From assembly GCA_951406725.2 (NCBI GenBank), contig OX597832.1, positions 30,132,001 through 30,196,000 on the forward strand: DNA of 64,000 bases. The letters are read 5' to 3'. The position numbers were made by a program, and so were the translations under genes. The DNA comes from Octopus vulgaris (Eukaryota). Below the pieces are notes generated by a model, which was not told the DNA's origin, made no database searches, and worked only from the letters and a program-made list of their open reading frames with translations. This document shows, one piece after another, positions 21,888 through 63,975 of the stretch; positions within the stretch are counted from its first letter, which is position 1, and each line of letters begins with the position of its first letter.

Positions 21888-22093
21888 GTATGTGACTGCG
21901 TGTACCGTTGGCGATTTTTTTTCCTCTGTCTTCCCTTCTCTGGATCTTTCCTTCTCCTATGTTTCTGACGAAGAGCTCCGCTCGAAACGTTAAACCCTCC
22001 TTCTTTCCTTCTTTCCTGAGCGTCCAATATTACTATATTTGTTCCACGTCCTCGCGTTGTTGTGTTTTTTTGTGCTTTCATGTTTGGATTAAC
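21888..22093 (+). mobile_element. Short (TA)n-embedded hammerhead element; truncated copies at 629-733 and 5575-5665
   Basis: Shared ccttctttcctgagcgtccaata...tttggattaact sequence in three places, each flanked by (TA)n. Confidence 0.75.
21961..21995 (+). ncRNA. Minimal type I hammerhead ribozyme
   Basis: GTTT-CTGACGA-A-GAGC(TCC)GCTC-GAA-ACGT-T-AAAC: stem I GTTT/AAAC, canonical core, ACGT palindromic stem III, GUU triplet (cut after 21991). Confidence 0.85.
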
Positions 22094-31370: not shown

Positions 31371-32026
31371 ATAAAATGGTGTGGGGCCAAGTTTTGACCT
31401 TTATTTCTATCATTTCCTTATATTTTGATCGAGATCAGTCGATTGGTAAACAGGTTGTTTGAAAGAGAAACCGTTCTCAATTTATATTTGGAGGTATGTA
31501 AGTAAGTGTGTTACGTAATAATCTCTCTCTCTACACACACACAGAGGCACATATACATATAAGATGTGACATCCTAAAAGTAATCTTTATATCCCTGTCA
31601 CCTCCGCAGTCTTGTAAAAATGATTTTAGTGAATTCCCTGTGTTTTATAGTTTCTATAAATGTGAATAAGCATACTTGTGTGTGTCTGTGTGTTCTTGTT
31701 TAAATATGAGTTCGTCTTAAGATTTTGCAGATATCTTCATCGCTTCTATCTTTTGCTTGTATCGGTCAATTAGATCGCCGAATATTAGCCTTGAGAGGAA
31801 TCCTCATATTGACGGTTTGTGCATAAAAACACACACACAATTCGTTGTTCTAAGACGTCCATGTTTAGTTGGATATAAAGATGACTTTTTAGCTTTAATA
31901 CTGCTTCCTTCGCTAATAATTAATTTTTAATTAACCAACTGGTTATCTGCGACATCGGTGTCTGAAAGGATGCTGATATCCCATACATCATAGCAGCGTG
32001 ATTTGATTGGAATGCTGTGACTGGAT

Positions 32027-32081
32027 GCCACCCACTGATGACGTCCAGTAGGATGAAATCGCATGATATGGGAACACCGGC
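32027..32081 (+). ncRNA. Full type I hammerhead ribozyme
   Basis: GCC-a-CCCA-CTGATGA-C-GTCC(AGTA)GGAT-GAA-ATC(GCAT)GAT-A-TGGG-aacacc-GGC: closed stems II and III, stem I with internal loop, AUA triplet (cut after 32068). Confidence 0.85.
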
Positions 32082-32263
32082 CTCATGACAGACGATTCTT
32101 GTCTGCTATGATCTACGTGTATGCTTTTTGCGCCGAGCACCTGTATGAGAAGATCTCCCAAGGCTAAAAACGCAGTATTCGGTATTCTAATAAGATATAC
32201 ATTTTATGTTGGATATAAAGATTACCTTTTCGTATTAAAACTGCTTCCGTCGCTGATAATTAA

Positions 32264-32660
32264 GGGTGTGGAATTTTGCCACAAGGGCAGAAATTTGAGG
32301 GGAGGGGACTAATCGATTACATCGACCCCAGTATTCAAGTAATACTTATTTTATCCACCCCGAAAGAATGAAAGGCAAAGTCGACCTCGGCGGAATTTGA
32401 ACTCAGAACGTAGCGGCAGACGAAATACCTATTTCTTTACTACCCACAAGGGGCTAAACACAGAGAGGACAAACAAGGACAGACAAACGGATTAAGTCGA
32501 TTATATCGACCCAGTGCGCAACTGGTACTTATTTTATCAATTCTGAAAGGATGACAGGCAAAGGCGACCTCGGCGGTATTTGAACTCAGAACGTGGCGGC
32601 AGACGAAATACCGCTAAACATTTCGTCCTGCGCTCTAACGATTCTGCCAGCTCGTCGCCT
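32264..32660 (-). mobile_element. SINE family A, dimeric form
   Basis: Two tandem cores joined by a linker. Imperfect 19-bp TSD ttccg(t/c)c(g/a)ctgataattaa. Confidence 0.85.
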
Positions 32661-34474
32661 TTCCGCCACTGATAATTAATGATATTCTGTAAAATATCTC
32701 CAATTAATATAAATTACTAGGGCGTCTTTCTTTCCGTGTCCATCTCCAAAGGGAGACAACACTGGTCATCTAAGGCCTATCTTACTCCCAGGACTAACAA
32801 GTGTTTAGATGTCTTCGCTCTCGCGTTACCTCTCGGGTGACCAGTTATGTTGGGTCAATATTTTCATCCTTTGTTGTTTATATCGGATAAAGTTGCATTA
32901 TAAATCAATTAGCAGTTAATATTTTTGTCATTGATATCACGTACACCACAAAATATGCAGATGAGAAGTTTGTTTTGTGTAATTTTATATTAATTTAAAT
33001 ATTTTCGATTTAAAAATTAATATTCATTTCATTATTCTTCCTTTAATAGAGACACCACGAAATCTGAATAAAGTAAAATTGTAATTATTGTGTGTGTGTG
33101 CGAGCGCCCCCTTGCGTAGTATTACTTACAGCGACGAAAATAGACAGACGCCATTATCCTATGACAGTAACTGTAATATATTATTATATCTATATTATAA
33201 TATCTTTATATATATAACGTTATAAATAGCATTGATAAACAGAATCACGATAAGGTCTTTTACCGTTCAAATAACCGTTCATCTTCATGTAATGATAAAT
33301 TATATATAAAATTCATAAATACCCCCACATTGGTAGTCATGGTGGTGGTGATGATGATGGAGGTGGGTTTTTATGCAAAGTGCTAATTCAGCGATTTGTG
33401 TTTTTTCTCTCGTATATTTTGAATTATAGGAAACAAACTTCTAGAATAATTCGACAGCATTGAAGAATTTCTTTTTTTTCTTGAAAAAAAAAAAAATCTA
33501 TTTTCATATGACAGTGATAGGAATTCGTCGTTCTTGTTACTCCTGGTTATAATAAATGCATTGGTGGTTATAATAATAGCATGATTTATATTAAACTATT
33601 ATCAAATGAAAAGGAAATTTCGACAAAATGATAATATTTCCTTGTAACACATGGGAAAATCGATGAGAATCAGAGAAAACGCCGAGACGACTGGGTGGGG
33701 GGCTCCACAGACAAAGGGTAATATATTTTGACTTGCTGTTCCTGACCAGTTAATTTATATCCTTTAAGCCGAAAATCGATCTAATCTCCAGCTTCCTTAT
33801 TGGTTTATTCCTGCCAATCTCTTCATGGTTTCCGTACTTTTCCTTTACTCCTGAATTTTTCTTTGTCAAAGAACAAATATTTCGCAGATCTTAGGAGGCT
33901 AAATGTTAAGAATGCCGGATAAATGTTCGCCAAAGTAATGCTTCCTAACCCAGGGGAGGGTTTTTCTTTGTGTTGTGGTTCGAGACAAAATATATCGAAG
34001 CAGTTTCTCTGTGTACACAATAAACTTTAAATGCAGCACTGATGTTAAAGTGTCGAAGGATTGTACCTCTTCATAGTACCTATCTTAAAAAGGAGGGCTT
34101 CGTTGTGAGAGATAAACGGTTAAATAAGAACCAGCAGAGTGCCAAAGATAGCATTCAAATTTGTCGACGATATCGATTTGACCAGGTTCCTCTGCATATC
34201 GCATTCTTCATAGATATACTTCGCTACCACCACCACAGCCATCACAACCACCACATCCACCACCAGCATCACCACCACAGCCATCACCACCACCACAACC
34301 ATCCTCACTAACACAACCACCATCACCACTACCACCACCACCTCACAAACATCAACTACCATTACAACCGTCCTCGATAGCACATCCAACATCGCCATCA
34401 CCCGCATTAACACCGCAAATGACAACCATTAGAAACAATTTACTGCCTTAAAGGAAATGACACGTTAGATAATG

Positions 34475-42235: not shown

Positions 42236-42500
42236 ACATTTGAGTGGTGTTACAAATTGGTCTGTTACTCTTCTGTTACACCCTACATTTGAGTTATGTT
42301 ACAAGTTGGTCTGTTACTCTTCTGTTACACTCTACATTTGAGTGGTGTTACAAATTGGTCTGTTACTCTCCTGTTACCCTCCATATTTGAGTGGTGTTAC
42401 AAATCAGTTTGTTACTCTTCTGTTACTCTTCACAATTGAGTGGTGTTACAAGTTGGTCTGTTACTCTTCTGTTACACTTTACATTTGAGCGGTGTTACAT
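42236..42500. repeat. 49-bp minisatellite, ~5.5 copies
   Basis: catttgag anchors at 42237, 42286, 42335, 42384, 42433 and 42482. Confidence 0.9.
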
Positions 42501-52740: not shown

Positions 52741-53173
<433 letters not shown>

Positions 53174-55234: not shown

Positions 55235-55400
55235 GTAAATGTAATATGTGACAATTATTCGGTAGCCATGATAAAACTCCGAGTTTCGGATGCCGAGGTG
55301 GAAATGGCCGGATAACTGATGAGATGGCAGCGTGAGTTTCCACCTCGGCATCCGAAACTCGGAGTTTTATCATGGCTACCGAATAATTGTCACATATTAT
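55231..55400. mobile_element. Hammerhead-bearing foldback element, same family as 52838-53130
   Basis: Perfect ~63-bp inverted arms taatatgtgac...ggtggaaa / tttccacc...gtcacatatta. Confidence 0.75.
55311..55371 (+). ncRNA. Type I hammerhead ribozyme (sense strand, inside Shox intron)
   Basis: GATAA-CTGATGA-GATG...CATC-C-GAA-ACTC(G)GAGT-T-TTATC: 5-bp stem I, canonical core, near-palindromic stem III. Confidence 0.75.
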
Positions 55401-56019: not shown

Positions 56020-57297
56020 TCCTCTTAATTCTATGATATTACGCTTATTTTAAAGACAGCCGAACATCATAAAGCCATATCTGTGACCACAAACACCGCC
56101 CTAATGAAGCATTCACACCAAACCCGCTGACAGCTTCTACGATTTTTCATCTTAACTGTTTAGCTTCCCCCTTTTTTAACACGTCTCACAGAATCTGTCT
56201 CGCAGGGAAATCATTTACAGCCGGACAGTCTATCACTCCTCTCAGACAAGACACTCTTTCACGCGGTCTCCCTCGCTATTATAGTCCTTATGCTTTGATT
56301 CCCTGTTCTCCGTTCGACTTCAGCTTCTTCGTAGCCATCTTACTTGCCTTCCACCTAAACTGTTCTTCAGTAATAGCGAGTAATGACAAGGGCGATAATC
56401 AATGACATCTACGGTAGTTTATTGTAAAGATTTCGTTTGAAATGTTAATTTACTCTGTCTTCTATCTCGCTCAATTATTCTTAAATTCTTTTTTATTACA
56501 GGGATTTCTTTTCTGCCATTCCCTTATTTCTTCCCGCCTCCCACCGAAGGTTTTCGTTTGGTTTTCGCCAATGTTCAATCAGTCAAGTTATTGCTGTTTT
56601 TGTTGTTCTTTGGTTTTCTTTAAATGTTTCGCTACTCGTCAGTGTATCGCGGTAATCGACTAAGTATGAAGTAATTAACTGGCGCTGGAGAACTGGTCAG
56701 GCTTCGAACAAAATACGTCATGCTATTGATAAAAGGATTGACAAAAGCGAAGCACAAACAACGAGTTGTCAGCCCAAGTAGCAAGACAGATGGCGGATTA
56801 ACATTGGCAGAGCAAATAAATCTCGTCAGCTGAACTTTGAATATTGGTCAGTGTCAGGACCTTGATGTGAACAGCGAAAGAATTTTTTCTCGTTGTTTAA
56901 TGAATTAGACCGGCAGAAATTGGTTGAGATTAATTAGAAAATTTATTTTGTAATTTATCATTGTTGTAAACTGTTCTGCTTAGATTGATGTATTACTTTT
57001 CTGCTCGCAAACCCCGTCGCCAAGACATCGCTTCCGAAAGAAGTTTATTCCTCGGTTCTTTGATTCAATCATCTTTATGTATGGCGGACGATTGAGATAT
57101 ACAAAAATATGGATATACATGGACGTATTTTCCTAATCTGGACTGACAACATATTTTTTATGTACACATCTAATTATTTAGAAGTCTCCATCTCTCTCAC
57201 ACTTTCCTCCACTATATCTGTGCGTGTGTGTGTGTGTGTACACATACACTCGTATATATATATACATATATAAACATATATATATATACATATATAT

Positions 57298-62989: not shown

Positions 62990-63072
62990 TATTATTAAAC
63001 CACTATTTTGCAAAACAAACAAGGAAAGACTTAATCAATACATAAAATTTTAATAAAAAGTAAAAAAAACCG

Positions 63073-63115
63073 CCACTACAATTGTTTCTTGTCCTGATCG
63101 ACAATCTTCAGGTGG
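63073..63115 (-). ncRNA. Minimal type I hammerhead ribozyme (inverted twin of 63162-63204)
   Basis: Exact reverse complement of the + strand motif, in the left arm of the 62997-63277 palindrome. Confidence 0.9.
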
Positions 63116-63161
63116 ATTTCCAATAAGTCAGTTTCAAATTTGAAACTGACTTATTGGAAAT

Positions 63162-63204
63162 CCACCTGAAGATTGTCGATCAGGACAAGAAACAATTGTA
63201 GTGG
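63162..63204 (+). ncRNA. Minimal type I hammerhead ribozyme
   Basis: CCAC-CTGAAGA-TTGTC(GATCAG)GACAA-GAA-ACAATTGT-A-GTGG: stem I CCAC/GTGG, intact core, 5-bp stem II, palindromic stem III, GUA cleavage triplet (cut after 63200). Confidence 0.9.
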
Positions 63205-63377
63205 CGGTTTTTTTTACTTTTTAAAATTTTATGTATTGATTAAGTCTTTCCTTGTTTGTTTTGCAAAATAGTGGTTTTGTCTCTAATTAATATTATATAA
63301 TATTTTACTATAAAATTGGATTTAATCCTAAATCTGATTTTTTCCCTGTAAATTTGGATTTATTCCCTAATATTTAT

Positions 63378-63412
<35 letters not shown>

Positions 63413-63519
63413 TCAATATGCATCTACAGTGGTAGCAATTGCACGATCTTCTGGGATGAGTCGGACACCTATATGGACGACTGTAACATAATAAAGACAA
63501 TGTTTTAGCCCATATCAAA

Positions 63520-63975
63520 TCTGAAACCCCAGGGATGAAGAACTCTGCCATCAATTAGAAAAGAGGCAAAATCTTTGAAGAAATGGTAAGTCTTTTTTCT
63601 CTTTGGATTTTTAGGTTGAATCGTCAGTGTGCTTCTATTAGTCAAGAAATCATTCAAGAGAAAGCGTTGCCTTTGTTTGAGGACCTGAAGAAAAAAATAC
63701 CCAGATGAGAAAGATGTAGAGTTTAAGGCAAGTCAAGGATGGTTCATGAGATGTAAGGAGTGAAGAAGTTATCACTCCATTCAGCTGACGAACATGTAGC
63801 AGCGGAATTTCCTGATGCATTAAAGAAAGTCATCGAAGAAAACGGGTTCTACCCTAACAGATTTTTAACGTAGACGAGACTGGGTTGTATTGGAAAAAAT
63901 TGCCAGACCGTTCATTTATTTCCAAGGAGAAAACTATTGCAGGCTATAAGATCTCAAAAGAACGTGTGACAAGTA
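63520..63975 (+). mobile_element. Degenerate pogo/Tigger (CENP-B-like) transposase fragment
   Basis: FKASQGWFMR, FPDALKKVIEENG and IFNVDETGLYWKKLPDRSFISKE, with stops and frameshifts. Confidence 0.85.

Follow-up and report, generated by a model that had tools for sequence, protein, structure and literature searches.

The repeat element in the window

The window analyzed here, a 64,000-nt stretch of Octopus vulgaris DNA (assembly GCA_951406725.2, contig OX597832.1, forward-strand positions 30,132,001 to 30,196,000), carried an element built from pieces of one repeat unit in both orientations. On the plus strand, a partial upstream unit (31840..31923; unit positions about 255-341), which contains the 5′ member of a direct repeat, was followed by a single full unit of 340 nt (31924..32263; GC content, 41%; 85.8% identity, or 291/339, to the family consensus described below). 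The first-pass annotation had described a direct repeat with a period of 340 and no ORF, and both observations held: the segments at 31851-31923 and 32191-32263 (73 nt) were 81% identical at a spacing of exactly 340, and the longest ORF touching the element was 63 aa. The start it had placed at 31824 was moved to near 31770-31783, where an inverted unit piece had been overlooked; its figure of about 1.3 monomers covers the quarter unit and the full unit that follows, without this inverted 5′ piece. The piece lies on the minus strand at about 31770-31839 (unit positions about 185-268; nhmmer E-value, 1.6e-12, and pairwise alignments), and its core at 31783-31839 matched the reverse of 32117-32172 in pairwise alignment. 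Judging from the sequence, this arrangement resembles an inversion of the Penelope-like element (PLE) or twin-priming kind.

The 3′ part of the unit contained a TATA-like word, GGATATAAAG (32211..32220, plus strand, also at 31871), inside a zone where many family copies end, and the last stretch of the unit (32245..32263, plus strand) coincided with the commonest ending place of family copies. The same stretch formed the left copy of a 19-nt target duplication, the right copy of which (32661..32679, plus strand) was identical at 17 of 19 positions and represents the original 3′ end of the element. Because this duplication lies on both sides of the minus-strand repeat at 32264..32660, the repeat must have inserted later into the 3′ end of the element. 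An insertion at this place had been noted before and was thus confirmed; the inserted sequence is a short, abundant repeat that contains two internal copies at a distance of 183 nt. We take it to be a tRNA-type SINE, and ARAGORN detected no tRNA within it.

The type I hammerhead named in the first reading of the sequence was recovered within the full unit (32021..32081, plus strand, including stems), with its core at 32035-32068. It comprised CUGAUGA (32035-32041), stem II with its loop (32042-32054), GAAA (32055-32058), a stem III of three AUC/GAU pairs with the four-base loop GCAU (32058-32067), the cleavage triplet AUA with a predicted cut at 32068/32069, and an inner stem I, CCCA/UGGG, whose 3′ strand starts at 32069. 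The reported closure of stem II required a shift in register that leaves an additional C behind A9, and it was lost in the register of the family, in which three of the four pairs read C.U, G.A and U.G; an extra base after A9 is known from some hammerheads, as described in parts of PMC4209133. Stem I carried two mismatches at positions paired in the family, and its long extension (31982..32115, approximate, plus strand; 42 predicted pairs in the consensus, between unit positions 60-110 and 145-192) was mostly unformed in the predicted fold of the window copy. A rival hairpin (−18.2 kcal/mol) was predicted to be 8.6 kcal/mol more stable than the hammerhead fold (−9.6 kcal/mol), and the copy folded as a circle reached a z-score of only −2.0. 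Rfam reported no hammerhead in the window at the gathering threshold and, with E-values up to 10 over 31700-32300, no hammerhead and one unrelated weak match. A scan of the window for the full core with paired stems gave three matches, the other two being twin inverted copies at 63111 and 63166. With one hammerhead, the window copy alone would be unable to release a monomer, and it falls outside the active retrozymes of Li et al. (2026), which are defined by two consecutive units with complete hammerheads. The single hammerhead, the stem II shift, the stem I mismatches, the rival hairpin and the low z-score suggest that the window copy has decayed, with degraded helices, and is probably dead.

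The dispersed 342-nt family and its hammerhead

A single-copy sequence, named with the first-pass annotation as the case that would speak against a retrozyme, was not what the genome (2.8 Gb, 227 contigs) contained. With the window unit as query, 46 matches at 72-86% identity were found on many contigs in the best 40 of 308 candidates; sibling queries produced up to 2417 candidates, a figure that counts candidates rather than copies, and two pattern searches returned 8 and 10 places against 0 for a reversed control. After duplicate removal, 112 distinct loci were analyzed, picked as best matches and therefore over-representing long and junction-containing copies. They were scattered across most large contigs and gave a consensus of 342 nt (GC content, 41%; longest stop-free frame in the consensus trimer, 79 codons), in keeping with the ORF-less units of 150-450 bp and GC content under 45% that characterize retrozymes. 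Identity to the consensus was 75.8-90.0% (median, 84.9%), and no young copy was present among the 112 loci; as the best copy reached 90.0%, the family looks extinct.

The anticipated long tandem arrays did not materialize among the best-scored matches of five DNA searches (best 40 for each) and two pattern searches: insertions exceeded 1.05 units at 58 of the 112 loci, reached two units at 2 and attained 2.35 units at most. Head-to-tail arrangement was nevertheless common, with the unit junction spanned by at least 25 nt on each side at 71/112 loci and two hammerheads spanned at 8/112, although both cores were intact at none of the six two-hammerhead loci inspected. An ORF-less multi-copy unit, a covarying hammerhead, head-to-tail junctions and two-hammerhead loci fit a non-LTR retrozyme, so that the original proposal of a genomic copy of a ~340-nt retrozyme monomer survives at the level of the family; it is weakened by the absence of long arrays and by the single degraded hammerhead of the window copy.

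The family carries a canonical type I core with helices I to III. Across an alignment of 29 copies, conservation was 94% in the 12 fixed columns of the core and 85% elsewhere, and the core was intact in 16 copies, as it is in the window. The 18-pair structure left 82% of cells paired, compared with 30-54% when slid along the alignment, and its covariation score was reached by 0 of 500 shuffles; pair changes on both sides numbered 5, no more than in shuffles (mean, 6). Among the 112 loci, stem II came in two variants (63 T-type and 29 G-type cases, with 17 unclassified). Compensatory changes were found at pair 119-129 (U-A to G-C; p = 7e-16) in stem II and at pair 105-150 (U-A to C-G; p = 2e-6) in stem I, and the two pairs switched together across the 112 loci. 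This covariation goes back to few ancestral or subfamily events, yet it does show that the fold was maintained in the source elements. Matches to Rfam Hammerhead_HH9 were found in 4 of 8 sibling loci at 22-26 bits, below the threshold of 52.

Folded as a circle, the consensus was highly self-paired (−114.5 kcal/mol; z-score, −7.3; 70% paired), in a predicted long rod of 42 pairs that extends stem I and is capped by the hammerhead. Its helix III is palindromic, with a predicted self-duplex of −14.9 kcal/mol compared with −3.8 kcal/mol for the window 11-mer; palindromic helix III in metazoan hammerheads that work as dimers is described in parts of PMC4209133. RNAalifold recovered 6 pairs from the 29 decayed copies, none within the hammerhead, and ViennaRNA gave stems II and III a probability below 1% even for the consensus. 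Apart from pair 105-150, the rod showed no compensatory change, and no predicted pair crossed the 342/1 junction.

Related sequences were present in sequencing runs under another organism label. Three presumed RNA runs contained 22, 19 and 14 assembled contigs at 80% likeness. Almost all of them stayed below 90% and the hammerhead core was covered by none, and as contigs they cannot show circles or ends. A fourth run, of unrecorded kind, contained 444 such contigs, two of which differed at only 3 positions over 124 nt; this likeness suggests that the family, and probably also the window locus, is common to a relative.

Insertion ends and Penelope-like elements

With the unit numbered from the junction and the predicted cut after position 144, 3′ ends were strongly clustered. 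At 100 of the 112 loci they fell at unit positions 245-342 or 1-25, that is, 100-220 nt past the cut site, with 3/112 at 130-160 and 1/112 at 26-129; they piled up at 331-342 and 1-15 (48/112). A search with a query that stops near position 190, in which bias toward particular 3′ ends was lowest, agreed (24/30 at 247-342 or 1-11). In contrast to this clustering, 5′ ends were scattered over the unit, with a modest pile-up at the unit junction (11/112 starting at 331-342) and none evident at the cut site (8/112 at 136-150). The cut site was spanned at 99/112 loci. Inverted pieces abutted the 5′ end at 30/112 loci and the 3′ end at 0/112, and a microsatellite lay no farther than 40 nt from the 3′ end at 42/112 and from the 5′ end at 18/112, against a background of 15%. 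No target-site duplications were found for the family (a shared flank word of at least 9 nt at 4/112 loci, three of them microsatellite-like), and no poly(A) tail was seen.

These insertions looked Penelope-like: they combine partial tandems, 5′ truncation, inverted 5′ copies and a microsatellite bias. Three of these features, namely the tandems, the 5′ inversions and the preference for microsatellites, count among the PLE hallmarks in parts of PMC8557442. Autonomous PLEs, expected in the same genome for a non-LTR retrozyme, were also present, with many intact ORFs of 781 aa (reverse transcriptase [RT] and GIY-YIG domains by Pfam) and others of 717 aa. The elements with the 781-aa RT and GIY-YIG ORF are young (L099 430-885 and 5217-5672; L075-L101), are bounded by 456-nt pseudo-LTRs (pLTRs) and have an upstream 359-aa frame without a Pfam match. 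Their hammerheads are minimal U3-A8 motifs with a UUGAUAA core, and in the 456-nt pLTR of L099 the 3′ end follows the hammerhead by about 70 nt; these PLEs thus also end downstream of their own cut site. The 717-aa type was represented by a very young PLE-like locus (L247 = G000:C21:8153500-8163400) with head-to-tail tandems of 2590 bp that were 99.9% identical and an inverted 5′ copy, and dozens of intact 717-aa ORFs occurred genome-wide.

No link between the unit and these elements emerged. No DNA likeness to the unit was found in 40 GIY-YIG loci by profile search or in 26 loci of a second clade, and the partner PLE of the 342-nt family may be extinct. In the window, where an autonomous PLE would have an RT and GIY-YIG ORF between pLTRs, tblastn with two PLE ORFs gave no match; against the 112 loci, three PLE ORFs gave 3 weak matches (34-38% identity), none joined to the unit, two being on the other strand and one 480 nt away. 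One candidate link was a remnant (L109 6682-6385, minus strand) with 65% identity to the 342-nt family, directly upstream of a 5′-truncated young PLE, which was rejected by age (65% to the consensus, compared with 88-97% among the PLE copies) and judged coincidental.

Template, mobilizer and known systems

We consider it reasonably probable that the window element is a decayed retrozyme copy, derived from a monomer that was probably circularized and probably inserted by a PLE enzyme. A source locus with two hammerheads would have been transcribed, and its RNA would have been cut after unit position 144, either by single ribozymes or by a double hammerhead formed via the palindromic helix III. 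In the predicted fold, the long stem I rod could keep the monomer ends close to each other so that they can be ligated. We infer that a PLE GIY-YIG nuclease then nicked AT-rich or microsatellite DNA and that its RT primed 100-200 nt past the cut, the position at which the copies are seen to end. Reading back over the hammerhead junction, often beyond one unit, the RT would have produced copies of 1-2.4 units, which are seen to start at scattered 5′ positions and often to carry an inverted piece there; the window copy would subsequently have decayed and received its SINE. Since the RT would start well downstream of the cut and read through it, the template is limited to a ligated circle or uncleaved RNA, and a cleaved linear monomer, which cannot be copied through the cut site, is excluded.

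Between a circle and an uncut RNA, a circle is favored by the predicted rod joining the ends, by copies longer than one unit and by neighboring units within a locus that mostly share variants (16/17 at position 150 and 34/46 at position 273). Identity within loci was barely different from that between loci (77.6% and 76.5%; higher in 31/46; p = 0.045). Against a circle, stem II variants were mixed in 2 of the 8 loci with two classifiable hammerheads (L043 and L118), two-unit insertions that carry the different variants in opposite orders and that could not arise from one monomer circle. The preferred explanation is further burdened by the lack of long arrays among the best-scored matches and of intact core pairs at the six two-hammerhead loci inspected, by the lack of DNA homology to the fetched PLE loci, by the 5′ starts piled up at the unit junction, by the RNAalifold and ViennaRNA results, by a rod whose compensatory changes stop at pair 105-150 and by the few both-side pair changes.

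The main competitor, a less probable reading, retains the same family and likely the same PLE machinery and dispenses with the circle: the template would be a linear RNA running from about unit position 325-5, at a distance of 30 nt beyond the TATA-like word, to 342. Transcripts would be processed by the hammerhead, and partial tandems would reflect template switching, in which the RT reaches the 5′ terminus of an RNA and resumes at the 3′ terminus of a second one. Such an RNA agrees with the pile-up of 3′ ends around the junction, with the 5′ starts at 331-342, which a linear 1-342 RNA predicts, and with the TATA-like word about 45 nt before the junction. It would accommodate the differing stem II variants of L043 and L118, the change in L043 falling between units and not at the cut site, and also the variant linkage, which crosses the cut site within a unit (positions 150 and 273 are linked to stem II type) and was not significant for position 273 of the previous unit (p = 0.33); the lack of predicted pairs over the 342/1 junction points the same way. 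However, an active mid-unit hammerhead would cut such an RNA, yet 99/112 copies run through that site; the excess of starts at the junction is modest, AT-rich flanks can lengthen alignments, and same-position variants in neighboring units are mostly concordant.

It is improbable that the unit, instead of being an independent non-autonomous element, represents an orphaned pLTR or 3′ end left by an autonomous PLE that has died out, amplified as truncated pieces. The PLE-like insertion anatomy would be expected from such a source, a second hammerhead repeat in the window appears to be a terminal piece of this kind, and a 2026 preprint derives retrozymes from pLTRs (10.64898/2026.07.22.740005, in part). 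Nevertheless, in the junction-spanning copies unit position 1 is preceded by position 342 of the unit itself and not by an ORF end, the weak tblastn matches were unjoined to the unit, and a canonical hammerhead with a long stem I differs from the minimal motifs of the 781-aa PLEs; ultimately, the family may still have arisen from a pLTR. Very unlikely indeed is a repeat of SINE-like or minisatellite type that spread through a LINE or through duplication at the DNA level and whose hammerhead is inert or present by chance. LINE-type insertion likewise gives fixed 3′ ends with a T-run behind them, 5′ truncations and inversions, and Rfam is silent on the window motif, but the compensatory changes seen in both stem I and stem II, the missing poly(A) tail, the near absence of shared flank words, the partial head-to-tail units and the dispersal over most large contigs all speak against it.

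Returning to the proposed PLE-inserted retrozyme, our findings place a new family in a class described since 2020, as an apparently extinct non-LTR retrozyme and likely non-autonomous PLE passenger; it may sit in Repbase or Dfam as an unknown repeat. By description, the hammerhead repeats of about 300 nt known as satellite 2 in newts and as Sm-alpha in Schistosoma are comparable, being of type I with a weak or palindromic helix III. Non-LTR retrozymes were defined in coral, mussel and axolotl, with PLEs named as likely mobilizers (Cervera and de la Peña 2020, PMC7229834). In the parts of that article that bear on the comparison, these share with our family the canonical type I hammerhead, an ORF-less unit of 150-450 bp with GC content under 45%, a highly self-paired predicted circle and co-occurring PLEs, and the basal U.U of helix II in our main variant resembles HHR_Amex2. 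Those retrozymes, in contrast, form dimers to 62-mers, whereas the octopus family consists of dispersed insertions of 0.3-2.4 units that have a fixed 3′ end and inversions at the 5′ end, and is old and without a young copy among the loci analyzed. The words 'octopus' and 'cephalopod' are absent from the main text of PMC7229834. For Xenopus, Li, Clavereau and Pollet (2026; 10.64898/2026.07.22.740005) tied retrozymes to PLE pLTRs as non-autonomous PLE derivatives, in a sample that, by the parts of the preprint drawn on here, covered 31 vertebrates, 3 insects and 1 anthozoan and no mollusc, and in which 1 of 9 tested dimers cleaved. The proposed mobilizer, the solo monomers over chromosomes and the few units of most families are alike in that report and here; the evidence differs, being co-occurrence and pLTR homology there and, here, insertion anatomy that points to PLEs without pLTR homology.

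Circular templates have already been proposed for PLEs (PMC4209133, in part), and PLE anatomy has been described together with non-autonomous Chlamys elements such as MRC1 (PMC8557442, in part). As far as these portions extend, partial tandems, inverted 5′-truncated copies, microsatellite bias, a palindromic helix III and a 3′ end downstream of the ribozyme are common to PLEs and to the 342-nt family, which differs in lacking an RT or GIY-YIG ORF and in having a canonical hammerhead with a long stem I in place of a minimal one. In giant squid, 235 hammerhead 1 matches are listed in the part of PMC6962438 concerned. The literature searched on retrozymes and hammerheads in octopus and cephalopods, at the level of main texts, contained no description of this 342-nt family or of such inversions.

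The movement of animal retrozymes has so far been inferred, in the portions of the literature considered, from PLE co-occurrence, shared hammerheads and pLTR homology. More than 100 insertion ends on an ORF-less 342-nt unit now display PLE-type anatomy; if a PLE RT is indeed responsible, they would constitute direct genomic evidence for PLE mobilization of animal retrozymes and the first such cephalopod family in the literature searched. We put forward, as a tentative suggestion that falls somewhat short of an even chance, that the copies of this dispersed, SINE-like retrozyme family record a Penelope-type RT at work on a tiny ribozyme RNA, with fixed-site priming 100-200 nt past the cut, more than one turn of the circle, 5′ inversion and occasional jumps between subfamily RNAs. 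The window copy alone is a fossil, and bench work would be better spent on the consensus of the family and on a nearby, younger hammerhead repeat.

This second repeat, unrelated and much younger, lies beside (TA)n at 55304-55400 (plus strand) with an inverted copy at about 55242-55304; it has its core at 55316, a long stem II and a near-palindromic stem III, and related copies occur at 52840-53070. Elsewhere in the genome, its best copies among 791 candidates were 93-97% identical. It was 81% identical to the repeat between 717-aa PLE ORFs and is thus likely a PLE terminal piece. A tandem array of its ~109-bp units (L226 = G000:C16:47252500-47255800), with 22 core matches at 109-nt multiples and about 30 units, apparently filled the 3.3 kb fetched and is a better candidate for a live retrozyme than the 342-nt copy in the window. 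At 63050-63800 of the window, the inverted repeat pair at 63111 and 63166 is followed by a transposase-like stretch, presumably a pogo/Tigger remnant to judge from its motif. Words resembling minimal PLE-type hammerhead cores were seen at 21965, 30236 and 36173 (plus strand) and at 56642 (minus strand), and a minisatellite with a 49-bp period occupies 42236-42499 (5.4 copies, 87% matches).
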